From Escherichia coli (GTDB lineage: Bacteria > Pseudomonadota > Gammaproteobacteria > Enterobacterales > Enterobacteriaceae), in the NCBI RefSeq assembly GCF_044324785.1, contig NZ_CP172127.1: a stretch of 64,000 nt of DNA; one strand, 5' to 3'. Below the pieces are notes generated by a model. It worked only from the letters and a program-made list of their open reading frames with translations. It had not been told where the DNA came from and ran no database searches. The position numbers and the translations under genes are program-made. Positions 47,393-64,000 of the stretch are shown here, one piece after another (within the stretch, counting starts at the first letter, position 1; every line of letters starts with the position of its first letter).

Positions 47393-47468
47393 TGGTGCTG
47401 GTTAACGGACTTGAACCGCTAGCCATTCGCTTACAAGGCGACCGCTCTACCATTGGAGCTAAACCAGC
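47393..47468 (-). tRNA. Prophage-encoded tRNA (76 nt; anticodon read as UGU, Thr)
   Basis: Hand fold of GCTGGTT...AACCAGCACCA: 7-bp acceptor stem, D-arm GCTC/GAGC, T-arm AGCGG-TTCAAGT-CCGTT, CCA encoded; the anticodon stem has one mismatch. Confidence 0.55.
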
Positions 47469-47473
47469 ATGTT

Positions 47474-47548
47474 TGGCGGGACAGCGTGGACTCGAACCAC
47501 GATAAGAAGGTTAACAGCCTTCCGTAATGACCTTTATACGACTGACCC
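47474..47548 (-). tRNA. Prophage-encoded tRNA-like gene (75 nt; anticodon read as GUU, Asn), possibly degenerate
   Basis: T-arm CGTGG-TTCGAGT-CCACG and anticodon arm GAAGG-CTGTTAA-CCTTC are clean; the acceptor and D stems each have one mismatch; CCA encoded. Confidence 0.45.
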
Positions 47549-50541: not shown

Positions 50542-50733
50542 TTATGTCGGTGATACTTCGTCGCTGTCTCGCCATACGTCCTCCTTTTCCTGCGGTAGTG
50601 GTAAAACTCCTGTTGGTGTTCTTTCACACCGGAGACACCATCGATTCCAGTAAGGTTGCCCGGGTCGAAAGCGATCGCCTTCCTTTCGCTCTCCACATCG
50701 ATAACAGTGCTTCATGCGATCACCATTTTGCAT
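50542..50733 (-). CDS. Small zinc-ribbon protein (about 57-63 aa)
   Basis: [32 protein letters not shown]; frame choice between two overlapping ORFs is uncertain. Confidence 0.35.
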
Positions 50734-51302
50734 GGTTTAATCGCCATGCCGGTAGCCAGTTCAAAATCGGAGTCGCACTGATTGCCCCACATATCCCACC
50801 CGGTCACTTTGTCGCGGCTAAATAACTCACAGCGCGGCACGTCGCCAAGCAACTTAGCTAACATGTCTCTTACGATCGGTGGTTTTGCACTGTGCTCCAT
50901 TCTCGGTGCGGTAAAGTGCTGGCATATGGAAGCGTCCATTCTCTCAGGCAACCGCCCTCGAACAGCAAACAAGCAATCCTCGCTATTTGCCCTGGTCATA
51001 TGCCCCATTCCGATCGCACTGTTGCCTTTGTGCTTATTGGTTTTGTGCCAGGTAAAGCCTTTCATAGTCATCAACCTGAATCCCCACGCCTCAACTACCT
51101 TTAGCGCTTCGGCTGGCTGTGTCGGCACCCACCACATCGCTAACAAGCAAGATTCTGGATCCGCTAAATCCCATACTGGCAGTCGGCAAATGTCCTGAAC
51201 ATTCATAACATCGTATTTATGTCCAGCACCGCGATTGCCATCGTTGGCTTTGTCGCGATATTGCCAAGGCGGATCTGCGTAAATAAGTCGGTATTTGTTC
51301 AT
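50712..51302 (-). CDS. Phage DNA N6-adenine methyltransferase (MT-A70-like, DPPW motif)
   Basis: [15 protein letters not shown]... catalytic DPPW near the N-terminus; 196 aa. Confidence 0.8.
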
Positions 51303-51739
51303 GCAGCTTTATCTCCCCATCTCGCTTTCCACTCCAGAGCCAGTCGCGCTTCGTCTGACCACTTAACGCCACGTTCTGTACCGAATGCCTGTATAAGCTC
51401 TAATAGCTCCGCAAATTCGCCTACACGCATCCTGCTGGTTGACTGGCCTATTACCACAAAGCCATTCCCGGCAAGGTTAGGAACAACATCCTGCTGCTTT
51501 AATGCTGCGGTAAACACACACTTCCAGCTTTCTGCATCCAGCCAGCGACCATGCCATTCAACCTGACGAGAGACGTCACCAAGGCAAGCCCAAAGCTTTC
51601 GATTCTGGTCTAAGCTGCGGTTGCGTTCCTGGATGGTCACTACGATTGGTTTGGTTGGGTCTGGAAGAATTTGCTGTATCGCGTGAATAGCGTTTTGCTG
51701 ATGAATGGGGCTTCTTAGTTCAAACGTTAGTTTCCTCAT
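51299..51739 (-). CDS. NinB recombination protein
   Basis: 146 aa matching lambda NinB as I recall it (IVVTIQERNRSLDQNRKLWACLGDVS...). Confidence 0.8.
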   Translation of the reverse strand: MRKLTFELRSPIHQQNAIHAIQQILPDPTKPIVVTIQERNRSLDQNRKLWACLGDVSRQVEWHGRWLDAESWKCVFTAALKQQDVVPNLAGNGFVVIGQSTSRMRVGEFAELLELIQAFGTERGVKWSDEARLALEWKARWGDKAA

Positions 51740-51974
51740 TGCTCACCTTCTGCACGCATGGATTAATTAACGCCAAAATAGCTTCTGGTTTCTCAATAAC
51801 ATCGAACCGCTCACCACTTGCCATTCTTACAATCGTAATCCCGGCCTCAAATATGGTTTCGATGTTGTCAGAGTTAACGTACAAGGGCTCATATGCACTT
51901 CTGGTGCTTTCTATCACGCCTGTGCTTGGTGGCTGATAGATGCTGCATTGCATGGTTAATTTTATAAATGGCAT
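51720..51974 (-). CDS. Hypothetical phage protein, 84 aa
   Basis: ORF only. Confidence 0.4.
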   Translation of the reverse strand: MPFIKLTMQCSIYQPPSTGVIESTRSAYEPLYVNSDNIETIFEAGITIVRMASGERFDVIEKPEAILALINPCVQKVSNEETNV

Positions 51975-51978
51975 ATAC

Positions 51979-52218
51979 TCACTCCTTCACTTTGACTCCA
52001 GCAGCGCGGATGGCGCTCTGCACCTCGCTTACATACAGATATGGGGTTCGCCCACTATGCATGGTAAAGCTTTCAGGAAGCTCAATCTCGATAGCTGCTC
52101 GCGATGCCTGCCATAAAGCCCACCACTCATTTAAGGAGTGACGAATATCCATGCTTGAAAATGCGAAGTACCTATCACCATTTCTTGCCTCGGTTATCAT
52201 CTCGAATGGTAATCTCAA
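51979..52218 (-). CDS. Hypothetical phage protein, 79 aa
   Basis: ORF only. Confidence 0.4.
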   Translation of the reverse strand: MRLPFEMITEARNGDRYFAFSSMDIRHSLNEWWALWQASRAAIEIELPESFTMHSGRTPYLYVSEVQSAIRAAGVKVKE

Positions 52219-52274
52219 TTTTTTGGCAACGTATTCCTAAAACTGCTTTCTTGATTCGCCCATATCAATCCCCG

Positions 52275-52475
52275 TTATGACAGGTTAATTTTCACCCAAC
52301 CCTTCCCACGCACATTTGCAACAAGCCCTTTCTTTCTCAGGTATTGCATACGGCGATCGATGGTTTCGATATACATTCCATTGCTCCGCCATTTAAGCCA
52401 GATATCAAAAACAGGTGTTGGTCTTTCACTCAGCATTGAAAGAATGTTTTGATCTAATTTTTCGTACTTGCTCAC
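52275..52475 (-). CDS. Hypothetical small DNA-binding-like protein, 66 aa
   Basis: Basic C-terminus (RRMQYLRKKGLVANVRGKGW) suggests a winged helix. Confidence 0.4.
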   Translation of the reverse strand: MSKYEKLDQNILSMLSERPTPVFDIWLKWRSNGMYIETIDRRMQYLRKKGLVANVRGKGWVKINLS

Positions 52476-52798
52476 AAATACCCTCTCTCACTTAATCGCG
52501 CCCACGCTTCGTTAAACTCTTCTCGAGTTGCGCCGGATTTTCTTTCTTCGAACATCATGCATTCGCTGATGTCTCCCCATGACTTTGGTCGCTTTTCAGC
52601 GAACAGATCATCCCATTCGAATACCCAGCGGCCTGATTTTCGGTAGTGGTAAATGGTCAGCCATGTTGTGCTGTTCGCTGGATACCCATAGAGAACTTCG
52701 ACTTTTTGATCACGGTCTTTATGCTTTTTCAGCAGGATAAAGCCAGCAACTAGCGAAGCTCCGGCAAGAATGATGATTGGAATTTGCCAGTCAGCCAC
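52472..52798 (-). CDS. Hypothetical membrane-anchored protein, 108 aa
   Basis: N-terminal TM helix IPIIILAGASLVAGFILL. Confidence 0.4.
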   Translation of the reverse strand: MADWQIPIIILAGASLVAGFILLKKHKDRDQKVEVLYGYPANSTTWLTIYHYRKSGRWVFEWDDLFAEKRPKSWGDISECMMFEERKSGATREEFNEAWARLSERGYL

Positions 52799-52870
52799 AC
52801 TTCCCTCTCCCCCAAATAAAAAGGCCTGCGATTACCAGCAGGCCTGTTATTAGGTCAGTTATGTAGATGG

Positions 52871-54247
52871 TCATACGTCAGCCCCTTGTGCATATCGTCT
52901 GCCACGCGCAGCAGGTGCATTTGATGCTGTGCAAATCTGTCTGGCTTCATCCTGGTCACATGCAACAAAGTGTCCGTTACAGAACCGCTGGTAAACCGTA
53001 CCAAGCGAGCCAAAACGGTTTTTCGTCACAATGATTTCAGCAAATGGCGCGGCGCTACTGTTCTCGTCATATACCGCTTCCCGATAGAGCATGATGATTG
53101 AGTCTGCGTCCTGCTCAATGCTTCCTGAATCACGCAAATCTGCGTTTGTCGGGCGTTTGTTTGGTCGCTTCTCAACATCGCGCGAAAGCTGACTCAGGGA
53201 GATAACAGGCGTTTTCAGGTCTTTCGCCATCGCCTTCAGGCTTCCGGAGATGTGAGCAATTGCGAGGTCGTTGCGGTCTGCTTTCGGCTTCTCAATCAGG
53301 CCAAGATAATCCGCCATGATGAGTGACAGGTTTGGATTTTCCTGTTTGTGCCGCTCTGCGATTGAGCGAATTTCTTCTACCGATAACCGCGAGGCATCGA
53401 CTACCCATACATCCAAATCTGCAAGCTGACTCATGCCGTTAGCAACACGTGCCCAGCCTTCGTCATCCATCGATGCAGGATTTCGTAGCACGCTAACCGA
53501 CATCCTCCCGGCGTTGGCAATGCTTCGCTCTGCAATCTGCAATGCGCTCATTTCCATCGAGAAAATCAACACTCCGCGCCGGACGTCAGAACCAGGAATA
53601 ACACGACTTGCAACGCCTTCGGCAATCTTCAGCGCCAGTTCGGTTTTCCCCATACCAGGACGAGCAGCGATTATCACCAGGTCTTCCGCGTTCATCCCTC
53701 CGGTGATGGCATCAAGTTCTTCGATTCCGGTCTTCAGGGTATCTGACTCTTCTCCGTTCCTCAGACGCCTGTCAAGCGTGTCAGTGTAGTCAGTGATGAT
53801 TTCACCTAACCGTACAGGTTTAACCTCGTCACGGGGCTTTCTGATGGCTGAGAGACGCTTTACAAGCTCATCCATCGCTTGACTCGATGCGTCGATGGTT
53901 CCGCTCTGAATTGGTTCACGCATTTCATCCATGATTTCCAGCACCAGACGGCGGTGATAGTTATCCGCGACCATTCCGGCATATCCCTTCAGGTTTGCGG
54001 CACTCGGGCAGTTTTTGCTGGTCATCAGGATTGACGTGAAATGCTCCTCTCCGCACGCCTCGGCAACCATCAGCGCATCGATTAGGTTTCTGTTTCTCGC
54101 CTGCTTGCGGATAACCTCGAAGGCTTTCCGGTAGAGCGGAATTGAAAACGCTTCCGGCTCCAGCGTTGCCAGAACGTCGCTGGCGGTTGGTGTTAATCCA
54201 CCAATCAGCAGGCCACCGATAACGCTCGCTTCGATATCCTGTCTCAT
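52871..54247 (-). CDS. Replicative DNA helicase (DnaB-like; P22 gene 12 analogue)
   Basis: Walker A ARPGMGKT plus DnaB-type N- and C-terminal domains; 458 aa. Confidence 0.9.
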
Positions 54248-55984: not shown

Positions 55985-56671
55985 ATGGATAAATACGAAC
56001 AAAGACGACTAAGGCTGATAGAGATAAGAGACCGATTCTGTAATGGAAAGGCCTCAGAGTTGGCTCGTCGAATAGAAAGGGAACCATCATACGTTTCCAG
56101 AATGCTGTATCCGGAAGGAAAAAGCGGAAAAAAACGCATTGCTGACGATATGATGGAACTAATTGAAAAATCTTTTAATCTCCCACGCGGATGGATGGAC
56201 ATGCTTGCAGATGGTAAAGCTGGAGCTACAGACCATCTTGAGTTTGCGGGTAACGTTCGTGCGGGTTTTGTTCCGGTAATTGGTGAAGCCGTTTTGGGAG
56301 TTGATGGCTCAGTGGATATGATTGAATTCAGATCCGGTTGGTTAAGCATCTACAGCGGCGATAAAGATGCTTACGGTCTGAAGGTTAAGGGTGACAGCAT
56401 GTGGCCAAGGATTCAGTCAGGAGAATATGTTGTTATTGAACCAAATACGCCAGTACATCCAGGTGATGAAGTCTTTGTAAGGACCAAAGACGGTCACAAC
56501 ATGATAAAGATCATGAACAAAACAAGAGACGGTGATTATCAGTTTAGTAGCATAAACAGTGATCACCGCCCAATCACTCTTCCTGTTGAAGAAGTTGATA
56601 AAATGCATTTTGTTTCAGCTATTGTGAAACACACCAGGTACGTAGACCAGGACGATCTGCCAAAAGTTTGA
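55985..56671 (+). CDS. CI-type prophage repressor (HTH + LexA-like S24 peptidase domain)
   Basis: N-terminal HTH and C-terminal autocleavage domain with GDSMWP (Ser nucleophile); 228 aa. Confidence 0.85.
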   Translation: MDKYEQRRLRLIEIRDRFCNGKASELARRIEREPSYVSRMLYPEGKSGKKRIADDMMELIEKSFNLPRGWMDMLADGKAGATDHLEFAGNVRAGFVPVIGEAVLGVDGSVDMIEFRSGWLSIYSGDKDAYGLKVKGDSMWPRIQSGEYVVIEPNTPVHPGDEVFVRTKDGHNMIKIMNKTRDGDYQFSSINSDHRPITLPVEEVDKMHFVSAIVKHTRYVDQDDLPKV

Positions 56672-61046: not shown

Positions 61047-61394
61047 GTGGAAGAAGAAATCTTCACTCGTGAAGAGGCAGCGTCGTATCTGAAGGTAGAC
61101 AAAGGCACTATCACGCAGTGGATACGAAGTGGACGACTTCAGGCCGCAAAGATAAATCCAGATAAACCTAAAAGCCCATATCGCATTTGCAAGTCAGACT
61201 GCATTGCGGCGCTTAAGTCTGTGAGACACAATAGCGCGGTGAATGCGGTTGATGTGCAGGAGGTTAAAGCATGTCAATCAAACTACGCGGTGGCACGTGG
61301 CACTGTGATTTCGTCGCGCCAGATGGATCAAGAGTTAGACGCTCTCTTGAAACATCGGACAAAAGGCAAGCGCAAGAACTTCACGATCGTCTAA
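61047..61394 (+). CDS. xis: Excisionase (Xis-like HTH)
   Basis: 115 aa; N-terminal REEAASYLKVDKGTITQWIRSGRL HTH; immediately upstream of and overlapping int. Confidence 0.65.
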   Translation: MEEEIFTREEAASYLKVDKGTITQWIRSGRLQAAKINPDKPKSPYRICKSDCIAALKSVRHNSAVNAVDVQEVKACQSNYAVARGTVISSRQMDQELDALLKHRTKGKRKNFTIV

Positions 61395-62431
61395 AAGCAG
61401 AAGCGTGGAGAGTAAAAAATCTCGGGGAATCACCGAAAAAGCTATTCAAGGAAGCCTGCATACGGTGGCTGCGTGAGAAATCGGATAAGAAGTCCATTGA
61501 TGATGACAAGAGCATTATATCGTTCTGGATGTTGCACTTCAGAGAAACCATTCTCTCAGACATAACAACAGAAAAAATAATGGAGGCGGTAGACGGGATG
61601 GAAAACCGCCGCCATCGCCTGAACTGGGAAATGAGCCGGGACAGGTGTTTGCGGCTTGGCAAGCCAGTGCCGGAGTATAAACCAAAGCTGGCAAGCAAAG
61701 GAACGAAGACGCGGCATCTGGCAATACTTCGCGCTATTCTCAATATGGCTGTTGAATGGGGATGGCTTGACAGGGCGCCCAAAATATCAACACCACGCGT
61801 TAAGAATGGACGAATCAGATGGCTTACAGAGGAGGAATCGAAGCGCCTGTTTGCAGAAATTGCTCCTCATTTCTTCCCTGTGGTCATGTTTGCAATCACG
61901 ACAGGCCTTCGCCGTTCCAACGTTACAGACCTTGAGTGGTCACAGGTCGATCTGGATAAGAAAATGGCATGGATGCACCCTGATGAAACAAAAGCTGGCA
62001 ATGCGATCGGAGTTCCTCTTAACGAAACCGCATGCCAGATATTAAGAAAACAGCAGGGTCTCCATAAGAGATGGGTGTTTGTCCACACCAAACCTGCCTA
62101 CCGAAGCGACGGAACAAAAACAGCAGCGGTAAGGAAGATGAGAACCGACAGCAACAAGGCATGGAAGGGAGCGTTAAAGCGGGCAGGCATTAGCAACTTC
62201 CGCTTCCATGACCTGAGGCATACCTGGGCAAGCTGGCTGGTTCAGTCCGGTGTCTCTCTTCTTGCACTTAAAGAGATGGGAGGATGGGAAACTCTCGAAA
62301 TGGTTCAAAGATACGCCCACCTTTCAGCCGGGCATCTCACCGAGCACGCGAGCAAAATCGATGCGATTATAAGTCGCAATGGCACAAATACGGCACAAGA
62401 GGAGAACGTGGTTTACTTAAATGCGAGGTAA
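61271..62431 (+). CDS. int: Tyrosine integrase (P22-like)
   Basis: 386 aa; catalytic-domain residues (...RFHDLRHTWASWLVQSGVSLLALKEMGGWETLEMVQRYAHL) and N-terminus like P22 Int; its stop lies inside the att repeat next to thrW. Confidence 0.9.
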   Translation: MSIKLRGGTWHCDFVAPDGSRVRRSLETSDKRQAQELHDRLKAEAWRVKNLGESPKKLFKEACIRWLREKSDKKSIDDDKSIISFWMLHFRETILSDITTEKIMEAVDGMENRRHRLNWEMSRDRCLRLGKPVPEYKPKLASKGTKTRHLAILRAILNMAVEWGWLDRAPKISTPRVKNGRIRWLTEEESKRLFAEIAPHFFPVVMFAITTGLRRSNVTDLEWSQVDLDKKMAWMHPDETKAGNAIGVPLNETACQILRKQQGLHKRWVFVHTKPAYRSDGTKTAAVRKMRTDSNKAWKGALKRAGISNFRFHDLRHTWASWLVQSGVSLLALKEMGGWETLEMVQRYAHLSAGHLTEHASKIDAIISRNGTNTAQEENVVYLNAR

Positions 62432-62491
62432 CTTATTGATTTAAATGGTGCCGATAATAGGAGTCGAACCTACGACCTTCGCATTACGAAT
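62428..62491. repeat. Prophage attachment-site repeat (attR): 64 bp overlapping the thrW 3' end
   Basis: Identical to 22652-22715. Confidence 0.85.
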
Positions 62492-62521
62492 GCGCTGCTC
62501 TACCAACTGAGCTATATCGGC
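62446..62521 (-). tRNA. thrW: tRNA-Thr (anticodon CGU)
   Basis: Reverse complement reads GCCGATATAGCTCAGTTGGTAGAGCAGCGCATTCGTAATGCGAAGGTCGTAGGTTCGACTCCTATTATCGGCACCA; canonical cloverleaf; sits beside proA. Confidence 0.9.
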
Positions 62522-62635
62522 CCTGAAAGGACATGTTCACGAACGTGAATCACGGTGGACAAGGTTAAAACTAACCGGGCGATGCGTCAATGGCCTTGTG
62601 AATCAAATGGCTACTTTTGCATCACCCGGTTTTAT

Positions 62636-63889
62636 TTACGCACGAATGGTGTAATCACCGATGCCGATCCACTTGTAAGTGGTCAGCGCTTCCAGCCCCA
62701 TTGGGCCACGCGCGTGGAGTTTTTGTGTGCTTACCGCCACTTCCGCACCCAGACCAAACTGGCCGCCGTCGGTAAAACGCGTAGAGGCGTTAACGTAAAC
62801 AGCGGAAGAATCCACTTCGTTAACAAAACGCTGGGCGTTGCGCATATCGCGGGTCAGGATCGCATCGGAGTGTTGTGTGCCGTGTTCACGAATATGGGCG
62901 ATGGCATCGTCAAGATCGCTGACGATTTTGACGTTCAAATCTAAGGACAGAAACTCATCGTCATACTCTTCAGCTTTAACAGCAACCACCTTCGCGGGAC
63001 CTGCCTGCAATTGCGTCAGTGCGGTAGCATCGGCGTGTAACGTCACACCGCTTTCAGCCATCTGTTTGCTTAACACAGGCAGGAAGCTATCTGCGATGTT
63101 TTTATTCACCAGCAACGTTTCTACCGTATTACACGTGCTCGGGCGCTGAGTTTTCGCGTTGACGATTACTTTCAAGGCTTCAGCGATCTCTGCACTTTCA
63201 TCAACGTAAATATGGCATACGCCTATACCACCTGTGATCACCGGGATCGTTGACTGCTCACGGCACAGCTTATGCAGGCCAGCGCCTCCACGCGGGATCA
63301 GCATGTCGATGTGTTTATCCATACGCAGCATTTCACTTACCAGTGCGCGATCCGGATTATCAATCGCCTGCACGGCACCTGCCGGTAAACCGCAGGATTT
63401 CAGGGCGTCCTGAATCACCGCCACCGTTGCCGCGTTAGTGCGACAGGTTTCTTTGCCACCACGCAGGATCACTGCGTTACCGGTTTTCAGGCACAGCGAA
63501 GCGACATCAACCGTCACGTTCGGGCGAGCTTCATAAATCACGCCAATCACCCCCAGCGGTACGCGACGACGCTCCAGACGCAGGCCACTGTCCAGCACGC
63601 CACCATCGATTACCTGCCCCACCGGATCGGCGAGGTTACACACCTGGCGCACATCATCGGCAATGCCTTTCAGCCGTGCGGGCGTCAGTGCCAGACGGTC
63701 AAGCATCGCTTCGCTAAGGCCATTGGCACGCGCGTCAGCAACATCCTGGGCGTTAGCGTTGAGGATGATTTCGCTTTGTGCTTCCAGTTCATCGGCGATT
63801 TTTTCCAGCACACGATTTTTTTCGCGGCTGGAGAGTTGCGCTAATTTATACGAGGCTTGCTTTGCGGCAATGCCCATTTGTTCCAGCAT
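62636..63889 (-). CDS. proA: Gamma-glutamyl phosphate reductase
   Basis: 417 aa, [38 protein letters not shown]...; matches E. coli ProA as I recall it. Confidence 0.95.
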
Positions 63890-63900
63890 CGGCCAGCTCC

Positions 63901-64000
63901 TTAACGGGTAATCATGTCATCACGGTGAACGGCAACCGGGCCATATTCATATCCCAGTATTGCATCAATTTCTTGCGAGTGGTGTCCGGCAATGCGGCGT
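63901..64000 (-). CDS. proB: Glutamate 5-kinase, C-terminal end (partial; runs off the window end)
   Basis: Minus-strand translation ends ...HRDDMITR-stop, with the stop 12 bp upstream of the proA start, as in proBA. Confidence 0.8.

Follow-up and report, generated by a model that had tools for sequence, protein, structure and literature searches.

A probable Sf6-type accessory gene cassette opening the nin region of an Escherichia coli prophage

A block of four small genes occupies the minus strand between a DnaB-type replicative helicase gene and ninB in the analyzed window, a 64,000-nt stretch of the E. coli contig NZ_CP172127.1. The most plausible interpretation is that the block represents an Sf6-type accessory cassette that opens the nin region of a P22/Sf6-like prophage at thrW and encodes lytic, binding-type proteins. 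Comparison of the sequences of related loci shows that the cassette consists of four independently shuffled families of small genes, which follow the replication genes and a tR2-type terminator. The sequence-only reading described these genes as unknown. They are in fact already known, being annotated in phages Sf6 (genes 46-49) and HK022 (gene 60), and they belong to catalogued families of uncharacterized function. All four proteins are assigned to PHROGs (5903, 7185, 343, and 8458), and two of them also to Pfam families, FlbD (PF06289) and Phage_phiTE_015 (PF26207). As a discovery the block carries little weight, being a real but ordinary finding.

Layout and expression of the cassette

The genes are referred to here by the names of their Sf6 homologues. 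The upstream flank, outside the cassette, is the helicase gene (52871..54247, minus strand), whose product matches the Pfam domains DnaB_C (261.5 bits) and DnaB N-terminal (49.6 bits). The downstream flank is ninB (51299..51739, minus strand), encoding an Orf-family recombination mediator (Pfam NinB, 182.5 bits); the matches on both sides agree with the position proposed earlier. The list of open reading frames likewise contains the four previously described minus-strand ORFs of 108, 66, 79, and 84 aa: gp46 (52472..52798, GTG start), gp47 (52275..52475, GTG start), a frame with a TTG start (52218-51979), and gp49 (51720..51974, ATG start), which is homologous to Sf6 gp49 and HK022 gp60. Their coordinates bear out the tight packing on one strand. 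The overlap of stops and starts, suggested for the block as a whole, is seen at two junctions, with gp46 and gp47 sharing GTGA and the 3' end of gp49 overlapping ninB by 20 nt, whereas the remaining junctions are short spacers. Each true start in the block has a ribosome-binding site.

A tR2-type intrinsic terminator (52812..52845, minus strand) is located between the helicase gene and gp46, as identified by a terminator scan, hairpin folding, and the Sf6 annotation. The coordinates given by the scan itself are 52845-52822. The terminator consists of an 8-bp G+C-rich stem AGGCCTGC...GCAGGCCT followed by TTTTTATTT. This stretch is identical to the one annotated in Sf6 as "terminator; homology to phage lambda tR2", and the terminator is kept in most of the 76 related loci. 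The hairpin is overlaid by a hydrophobic NinA-like mini-ORF of 27 aa (52791..52874, minus strand), whose ATG overlaps the helicase stop and whose stop overlaps the gp46 start. Its homologue is gene 45 of Sf6, annotated in the Sf6 record as "similar to phage 21 NinA". The mini-ORF is retained in approximately 60 of the 76 loci, and its coding status is uncertain.

The order of replication genes, tR2-type terminator, block, and ninB on the early rightward strand places the cassette in a lambdoid nin region. No sigma-70-like promoter was found by a scan of the minus strand between 51000 and 53500, and the block continues into ninB through overlapping codons, with no intervening terminator. Since a terminator precedes the block and the scan found no promoter, the genes are probably delayed-early lytic genes dependent on antitermination, judging by a scan for consensus terminators and by homology with the annotated tR2 of Sf6. 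Transcription from the early rightward promoter would enter the block only once the phage antiterminator lets RNA polymerase past tR2, and in a repressed prophage the block would probably be silent. The nin5 deletion of phage lambda is viable, and by analogy with the lambda nin genes the genes of the block are probably dispensable on a permissive host. A repeat scan of the region detected no repeats, and an Rfam scan produced one match far below threshold, CRISPR-DR57 (18.8 bits against a gathering score of 39, E 0.94).

Conservation and mosaicism

Three of the four genes, gp46, gp47, and gp49, are real and intact genes under purifying selection according to their substitution patterns. The gp46 dN/dS ratio ranges from 0 to 0.36 across 51 alleles, and in a comparison at 69% amino acid identity, changes affect 39 of 48 synonymous sites and 39 of 186 non-synonymous sites. 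For gp47 and its homologue from an Enterobacter prophage pS is 0.69 and pN 0.22; for gp49 and three distant homologues the ranges are 0.79-0.90 and 0.33-0.46, respectively. In the core block of the fourth, phiTE_015-type family, amino acids are kept through synonymous codon changes. Thus all four families are conserved as coding in relatives, the check that had been proposed for these ORFs. Plus-strand ORFs across the block (65, 58, 57, and 58 aa) were rejected as antisense shadows, because the substitution patterns match the minus-strand frames.

The gene content of the slot is variable, as had been supposed. Among 76 IMG/VR loci with gp46, 38 continue with gp47 and a phiTE_015-type gene, while 30 reach ninB without either of these; all four genes are found together in two loci, and an FlbD-like gene likewise in two. 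The gene gp46 follows either of two DnaB types that are approximately 31% identical to each other, and no DnaB-type gene was found in the flank of 31 loci (incomplete flank or other replication module). In other genera, relatives of gp47 and gp49 occupy the same slot, from the replication genes to NinB or DUF1367.

The interrupted phiTE_015-family gene

Not all four genes are as they had been drawn: gp46, gp47, and gp49 are intact, but a nonsense mutation has given rise to the 79-aa ORF, an artefactual frame left over from a phiTE_015-family gene homologous to Sf6 gp48 (51979..52263, minus strand; ancestral length 94 aa), whose ancestral ATG start at 52263 is preceded by a GGGGA ribosome-binding site. 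Codon 9 is TAG in the window (52239-52237) and GAG in relatives, the changed base being 52239. The 79-aa frame was considered as an expressed, N-terminally shortened protein and rejected, since no ribosome-binding site precedes the TTG at 52218.

E. coli M18 carries an intact version of this allele, with window base 52239 as the sole difference in the gene, and all 35 related gene copies recognized in the retrieved loci are intact as well. No 100% match to the amber allele was found in 5,426 E. coli genomes. In these comparisons, the change from GAG to TAG is private to the window copy and recent, and the gene is most likely non-functional. The read-through translation contains three blocks of the family, MxESRKQF, W..WQASRAAIEIELP, and AIRAAGxKVKE. 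The assignment to PF26207 is a precomputed annotation of 14 intact protein clusters that are 95-99% identical to the read-through product, not a model score of the window copy. For annotation purposes, the third ORF is better called a phiTE_015-family pseudogene than a 79-aa protein.

The gp46 and gp47 proteins

The gp46 protein matches phrog_5903, a family of uncharacterized function, over its full length (E 1.1e-75, residues 1-108 of 108). The transmembrane helix proposed earlier at the N-terminus of one of the proteins is supported here by the hydrophobic run IPIIILAGASLVAGFILL and by a helix at residues 5-27 of the AF2 model. The run is followed by KKHKDRDQK. As the segment after the helix is strongly basic, the positive-inside rule predicts a cytoplasmic C-terminal domain. 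This conserved domain of approximately 75 aa contains 20 invariant residues and the motifs YGYP, TWLTIYH, FEWDDLF, and GRP. It belongs to no Pfam family and has no detectable relative of known fold. The protein would be an adaptor anchored in the inner membrane, with its conserved domain in the cytoplasm; given the lack of a relative of known fold, "adaptor" is the default reading rather than a result.

The gp46 domain is common to temperate lambdoid phages, virulent siphoviruses, and one jumbo phage, and is conserved across very different phage lifestyles. In the virulent siphoviruses Shuimuvirus IME207 and Deseoctovirus S192, its homologue lies between the primase and helicase genes, with its stop abutting the helicase start. 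In the jumbo phage Goslar, the homologue is found among hypothetical genes.

The gp47 protein matches phrog_7185, also of uncharacterized function (E 1.2e-34, residues 1-66 on profile positions 1-79 of 79), and its homologues form 20 clusters down to 63% identity. Of the basic, winged-helix-like tail described for one of the proteins, the basic tail is evident (RRMQYLRKKGLVANVRGKGWVKINLS), while all winged-helix matches are sub-threshold. These matches cover residues 17-63 and include HTH_Crp_2 (E 0.067) and Rrf2 (0.27); in the PDB, IscR and Elf-1 are matched at 0.3, also below threshold, and the profile search found no winged-helix relative there. From these sub-threshold matches, gp47 is probably a small basic winged helix-turn-helix protein, which would act as a nucleic-acid binder.

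The gp49 protein and the FlbD/SwrD fold

The gp49 protein matches the Pfam FlbD/SwrD profile PF06289 with 27.8 bits (residues 21-76 on profile positions 2-57 of 59), above the gathering threshold of 24.7 bits. Its phage relatives score from 18.9 to 34.2 bits, so that many of them fall just below this threshold. The AF2 model has the topology of the family, with two antiparallel strands, a 3-10 turn, three strands, and a C-terminal helix, and its top fold matches are RemA, the LytTR domain of AgrA, and ComE. A 2026 preprint on SwrD crystal structures describes the same topology and a fold related to RemA, LytTR, and ComK; ComE, a LytTR-type regulator, is not named in the preprint, which names ComK instead.

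The ring-interface motif N-xxx-I is found in gp49 as N34-S-D-N-I38. Within the phage family, Ile38 is invariant, and the asparagine is present in eight of 14 representatives. The Pro-Asp-Thr motif on the SwrD surface, in the loop between strands 3 and 4, is absent; gp49 has G45-I46-T47 at this place, with Gly45 near-invariant across the phage family. Also absent is an insertion between strands 3 and 4, where RemA bears its DNA-binding arginines. With this predicted SwrD/RemA fold, gp49 would assemble into rings and bind a partner from the host or the phage. The "flagellar protein" label of gp49 reflects a fold family and not a function, and the presence of the SwrD/RemA fold in enterobacterial phages is a small lead.

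Some enterobacterial phage proteins combine this fold with a winged-helix domain or a phiTE_015-type tail. In one relative of gp49, located directly after DnaB, a winged-helix domain is fused to the FlbD-like domain. Comparison by hhalign of the gp47 family with the winged-helix half (Pfam-supported) of the fusion protein P0212 revealed no homology, and therefore this fusion provides no strict link between gp47 and gp49.

Possible roles of the cassette

The proteins of the cassette most likely would work by binding rather than by catalysis. No result of the analysis shows the host-interaction role with which the earlier reading associated genes of this slot. Comparison of the four proteins and Sf6 gp48 with the PADLOC defence models gave no match below E 0.01, an NCBIfam scan of all proteins gave no match, and sequence and profile searches of the PDB with all four families yielded nothing useful. 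The literature on phiTE_015, FlbD with prophage, Sf6 gp46-49, and nin-region anti-defence contained nothing specific and no experiment on any of these proteins, and motifs searched for in the supplements of one screen of phage accessory genes did not occur there.

Several other interpretations were considered. It is unlikely, though worth weighing, that the proteins are accessory factors of phage replication and recombination rather than host-directed, with gp46 as a membrane partner of the helicase and gp47 and gp49 as DNA binders. This would fit the location of the cassette between replication genes and a recombination mediator, the placement of the gp46-domain homologue between primase and helicase in IME207 and S192, the similarity of the predicted gp49 fold to the DNA-binding RemA and LytTR, and the winged-helix fusion next to DnaB. 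However, gp46 follows two unrelated DnaB types, with none found in the flank of 31 of 76 loci, and is separated from the helicase gene by the terminator and by a mosaic boundary in the sequence; therefore no specific replication partner of gp46 is implied. Moreover, the Goslar homologue has hypothetical genes as neighbors, gp49 lacks the RemA DNA-binding insertion, and gp47, the phiTE_015-type gene, and gp49 are missing from many otherwise similar phages. Very unlikely, in our estimate, is expression of the genes from the prophage as lysogenic-conversion "morons" benefiting the host. PHROGs does file phrog_8458 under "moron, auxiliary metabolic gene and host takeover", and the slot is variable in the manner of moron sites, but the genes lie downstream of tR2 inside the early right operon, the scan found no promoter-like site on the coding strand, the block overlaps into ninB with no terminator after it, and the gp46 domain also has homologues in virulent phages, which do not form lysogens. 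A chance origin of some or all of these open frames is extremely improbable. Every ORF is short, the 79-aa frame starts with a TTG having no ribosome-binding site, and the NinA-like ORF overlies a terminator hairpin; yet the substitution patterns already refute this explanation for three of the four, with clear purifying selection on gp46, gp47, and gp49, full-length homologues exist in several genera, the phiTE_015 core block is conserved despite synonymous changes, and the AF2 models of gp46 and gp49 are confident. It thus applies only to the 79-aa frame as drawn and possibly to the NinA-like mini-ORF.

For gp49 in particular, there is only a slight chance that it is a true flagellar protein that, in infected cells, modulates the flagellar motor of the host or some other MotAB-like stator complex. 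Its Pfam FlbD match is above threshold, RefSeq and PHROGs label it as a flagellar protein, and loss of SwrD impairs motor torque in Bacillus, with MotA predicted in silico as a partner in the preprint. On the other hand, the preprint reports that Escherichia has no SwrD and could not confirm the MotA interaction biochemically; the Pro-Asp-Thr motif, its proposed protein-interaction site, is not conserved in gp49; and the gene was never found in a flagellar (fla-che) operon but always in the phage nin slot between replication genes and NinB. Further, the family name derives from gene position in Firmicutes and spirochaetes rather than from a tested activity of the phage proteins. A broader proposal, which we regard as rather improbable, is that the phage FlbD-like proteins (gp49, HK022 gp60, and about 13 further clusters) form a viral branch of the SwrD/RemA ring fold, recruited in hosts without SwrD either for early regulation or to inhibit a host complex (possible targets being MotAB-like stators, among them Mot, Exb, Tol, and Zorya), and that, separately, the gp46 domain is a new, widely used module for host takeover or replication coupling. 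The preferred interpretation remains the Sf6-type accessory cassette.

Comparison with known systems

The closest known counterpart of the block is found in Shigella phage Sf6 (AF547987 / NC_005344), which has the same order of tR2, NinA-like ORF, gp46, gp47, gp48, gp49, and ninB. The DNA is 97.3% identical to the Sf6 stretch with genes 46-49, at a query coverage of 94% (1-1275 of 1301 nt), and the proteins gp46, gp47, and gp49 are 99%, 98%, and 90% identical, respectively. Unlike Sf6, the window has another type of DnaB helicase upstream (31% identity) and another mosaic allele of the variable C-terminal segment of gp48, and its gp48 copy carries the amber codon. In Escherichia phage HK022, the product of gene 60 is 98.8% identical to gp49 and is encoded at the same place just before a ninB-type gene, whereas genes 56-59 replace gp46-gp48. 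Compared with the Phage_phiTE_015 family (PF26207; RefSeq "phiTE_015 family protein"), the third gene has the same three blocks and 95-99% identity to the 94-aa members, but is interrupted at codon 9.

Phage lambda itself has none of the four families, though the block has the same map position as the lambda nin region (ren and ninA-ninI, between P and Q, downstream of tR2), and its transcription logic, by homology of tR2, would be the same. The shared neighbors are ninB and, in relatives of the block, ninD, E, X, F, G, and H. Finally, gp49 shares the topology, the top fold neighbors, and the N-xxx-I motif with the SwrD/FlbD proteins (PF06289) of Bacillus subtilis and Borrelia burgdorferi, while its first hairpin is longer (strands 3-14 and 23-34), Gly-Ile-Thr takes the place of Pro-Asp-Thr, and its gene lies in the nin region of a phage whose host genus has no SwrD. 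A further close known system for gp49 is RemA (PDB 7BME), a ring-forming DNA-binding regulator.

Identity of the Genes and Their Prophage Setting

The four small genes between the helicase gene and ninB are already known phage genes of unknown function; the observation, though correct, is unremarkable. The block matches Shigella phage Sf6 at 97.3% identity over 94% of the query, and the matching Sf6 stretch is annotated as the terminator tR2, gene 45 (NinA-like), genes 46, 47, 48, and 49, and gene 50 (NinB). The sequence-only reading called the genes unknown, but none is uncatalogued: besides the Sf6 annotation as genes 46-49, each has a PHROG match. The homologues gp46, gp47, and gp49 match, along their entire length, families 5903 (E 1e-75), 7185 (E 1e-34), and 8458 (E 1e-39), respectively, and the 79-aa remnant of gp48 matches phrog_343 over residues 11-79 only (E 3e-16). 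The 84-aa gp49 is also 98.8% identical to HK022 gene 60. Part of the block occurs in 2,088 of the 5,426 complete E. coli genomes, with coverage of at least 80% in one only, strain PEC408, where RefSeq names two of the genes "flagellar FlbD family protein" and "phiTE_015 family protein".

The block belongs to a P22/Sf6-like prophage adjoining tRNA-Thr(CGT) (62446-62521) and proA; its integrase gene spans 61271-62431, and a gene for a cI-type repressor spans 55985-56671. On the minus strand, the early right operon comprises, in order, cro-like and cII-like genes, the replication initiator (55065-54244), the DnaB-type helicase (54247-52871), the four ORFs, ninB (51739-51299), and a methyltransferase-like gene. 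The 196-aa ORF after ninB (50712-51302, minus), whose start overlaps the ninB stop, contains a DPPW motif and probably encodes a DNA N6-adenine methyltransferase. The same ORF (MNKYRLIY...) follows ninB in several of 76 related loci, and thus constitutes another variable cassette. The prophage also brings two tRNA genes of its own, Thr(TGT) and Asn(GTT) (47393-47548, minus), immediately downstream of its antiterminator Q-like gene. The host flank (62440-64000; tRNA-Thr, proA, and the end of proB) has a best identity of 97.5% among the 5,426 complete E. coli genomes. The host could belong to a divergent Escherichia lineage; alternatively, recombination could have occurred at this locus.

Layout and Coding Status

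All four ORFs proposed from the sequence were found on the minus strand: gp46 (108 aa, 52798-52472, GTG start), gp47 (66 aa, 52475-52275, GTG), the 79-aa ORF (52218-51979, TTG), and gp49 (84 aa, 51974-51720, ATG). Overlapping stops and starts are real for gp46/gp47 (GTGA) and gp49/ninB (20 nt), whereas the remaining junctions are short spacers. An intrinsic terminator, with a stem at 52845-52822 followed by a T run, separates the helicase stop from the first ORF. This tR2 hairpin is spanned by a putative coding mini-ORF of 27 aa (52791-52874, minus), a hydrophobic NinA-like homologue of Sf6 gene 45. Its ATG shares bases with the helicase stop (ATGA) and its stop codon with the gp46 start; most related loci retain it.

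Ribosome-binding sites precede gp46, gp47, and gp49, and substitution patterns support all three as coding. The dN/dS of gp46 is 0-0.36 over 51 DNA alleles; at 69% protein identity change has reached saturation at synonymous sites (39 of 48), compared with 39 of 186 non-synonymous sites. A comparison of gp47 with a copy from an Enterobacter prophage gives pS 0.69 and pN 0.22, and comparisons of gp49 with three homologues, each about 40% identical, give pS 0.79-0.90 and pN 0.33-0.46.

A Recent Pseudogene of the phiTE_015 Family

The 79-aa ORF, taken for a gene in the sequence-only reading, is a pseudogene remnant of the phiTE_015-family gene (Pfam PF26207; 52263-51979, minus; ancestrally 94 aa). 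In Sf6 and every other relative the gene starts at an ATG that has GGGGA as its ribosome-binding site and corresponds to position 52263. In the frame opened there, codon 9 (52237-52239) is TAG, where relatives have GAG; no ribosome-binding site precedes the TTG start of the 79-aa frame. An intact version of this allele (94 aa) is present in E. coli M18, the sole within-gene difference being base 52239. The identical allele with GAG occurs in two IMG/VR loci, and 14 protein clusters at 95-99% identity contain intact 94-aa proteins. No 100% match to the allele was found among the 5,426 complete E. coli genomes. The mutation is therefore recent and private. Barring a sequencing error or an amber-suppressing host, the gene is probably dead in the window.

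In IMG/VR loci L043 and L058 the same allele is intact, but gp46 is broken by W74stop in L043 (4001-4327) and apparently also in L058, where the ORF pattern shows a split into 73-aa and 28-aa ORFs. This reversal of the window pattern suggests that the accessory genes of the block decay independently in prophages.

The family alignment (51979-52263 in the window) has three invariant blocks, MDESRKQFEEW, W..WQASRAAIEIELP, and AIRAAGIKVKE, and between them two hypervariable segments that assort or recombine independently between alleles. In the core block amino acids are kept despite synonymous codon changes, and therefore the constraint acts on the protein. Lengths in the fetched loci are 80-110 aa, and the C-terminal KVKE codons double as the ribosome-binding site of the next gene.

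A Mosaic Slot behind the Terminator

The predicted variability of the slot was borne out by 76 IMG/VR loci retrieved via gp46, which differ in gene content after this gene. The first gene past the terminator is gp46 in all 76. Its upstream neighbour is one of two DnaB types that share about 31% identity; the flank of 31 loci yielded no DnaB-type gene, being truncated or holding a different replication module. Downstream, 38 loci have gp47 and a phiTE_015-type gene, two have a different 60-aa ORF and a phiTE_015-type gene, and 30 reach ninB with neither, some via an unrelated 78-aa ORF. A FlbD-like gene is present in only two of the 76. Distant homologues of gp47 and gp49 from Enterobacter and metagenomes occupy the same slot, from replication genes to NinB or DUF1367.

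The 58 clusters of the gp46 family (identity down to 43%) all fall within Enterobacterales. The transmembrane helix claimed at one N-terminus is present in gp46, although it is variable and absent from a few family members. The confident AF2 model (pLDDT 83.6) has helix 5-27, four strands, and helix 92-104. The C-terminal domain, with 20 invariant residues and the motifs YGYP, W-L-T-x-Y-H-x-R, F-E-x-D-D-L-F, and R-P, would face the cytoplasm, since a basic segment follows the helix. By tblastn this domain was found in 93 phage records, mostly virulent siphoviruses, and a Foldseek search of viral models returned true homologues only, from jumbo phage Goslar (L089 2953-3273, 106 aa) and Salmonella phage IME207 (L087 2462-2725, 87 aa). 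The homologues in virulent phages are about 42-52% identical over the part aligned by tblastn and 34-38% in the BFVD fold alignment. The 87-aa siphovirus copies, including that of Escherichia phage S192 (L090 2462-2725), have no room for the N-terminal helix.

The small protein gp47 is basic, and the winged-helix-like character proposed for one basic tail corresponds here to sub-threshold matches to winged-helix families only (residues 17-63). Relatives at 33-37% identity (E about 1e-3 to 4e-5) were found in 537 plasmid records, large and mostly conjugative plasmids, mainly of Klebsiella and Citrobacter. In the one examined, Klebsiella IncHI1B/IncFIB plasmid NZ_OM144974 (L091 4001-4228), the relative lies among small co-directional hypothetical ORFs, including a DUF4942 gene. 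The Sf6 record itself already mentions similarity to a pHCM1 ORF.

Proposed Role and the FlbD Family Label

Gene identity, coding status, map position, the terminator, the mosaicism, and the pseudogene are established here. As to role, we moderately favor a general picture in which the block would be expressed as delayed-early genes dependent on antitermination, and, like the lambda nin region, would be dispensable. The proteins would act by binding. Profile searches revealed no catalytic family or motif in them. An accessory role in replication or recombination is rather unlikely; in its favor, the gp46-domain gene of the two siphoviruses examined, IME207 and S192, sits between those for primase and helicase, its end abutting the start of the latter. 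That the genes are morons expressed from the prophage is improbable; a scan of the coding strand over 51000-53500 detected no sigma-70-like promoter. Least probable is that the ORFs are spurious, a reading valid for the 79-aa frame as drawn and for no other.

It is also improbable, marginally more so than the moron reading, that gp49 is a true flagellar-motor protein. It scores 27.8 bits against Pfam FlbD (threshold 24.7), and its family, which numbers only 14 clusters among 1.84 billion representative proteins searched exhaustively, mostly scores near that threshold. The FlbD-like domain also occurs in fusions: P0212 (L081 2416-2868), directly after DnaB, has an N-terminal winged-helix domain (HTH_24/MarR_2) with no detectable homology to gp47, and P0203 (L082/L083 4001-4363) has a C-terminal tail ending ...AIRAAGITVRGDR, resembling the phiTE_015 C-terminus. 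In crystal structures the FlbD-family protein SwrD, reportedly absent from Escherichia, forms hexameric rings with the topology two strands, 3-10 turn, three strands, helix; its fold neighbours are RemA, AgrA LytTR, and ComK, and its conserved motifs are Asn15-xxx-Ile19 and Pro26-Asp27-Thr28 (2026 preprint, PMC13232269). In gp49 the first motif is kept as N34-xxx-I38, whereas Pro-Asp-Thr is replaced by Gly-Ile-Thr, and the insertion at the DNA-binding place of RemA is missing. Thus the FlbD label is justified for gp49 as a statement of fold and homology, and the functional label "flagellar protein" is unsupported.
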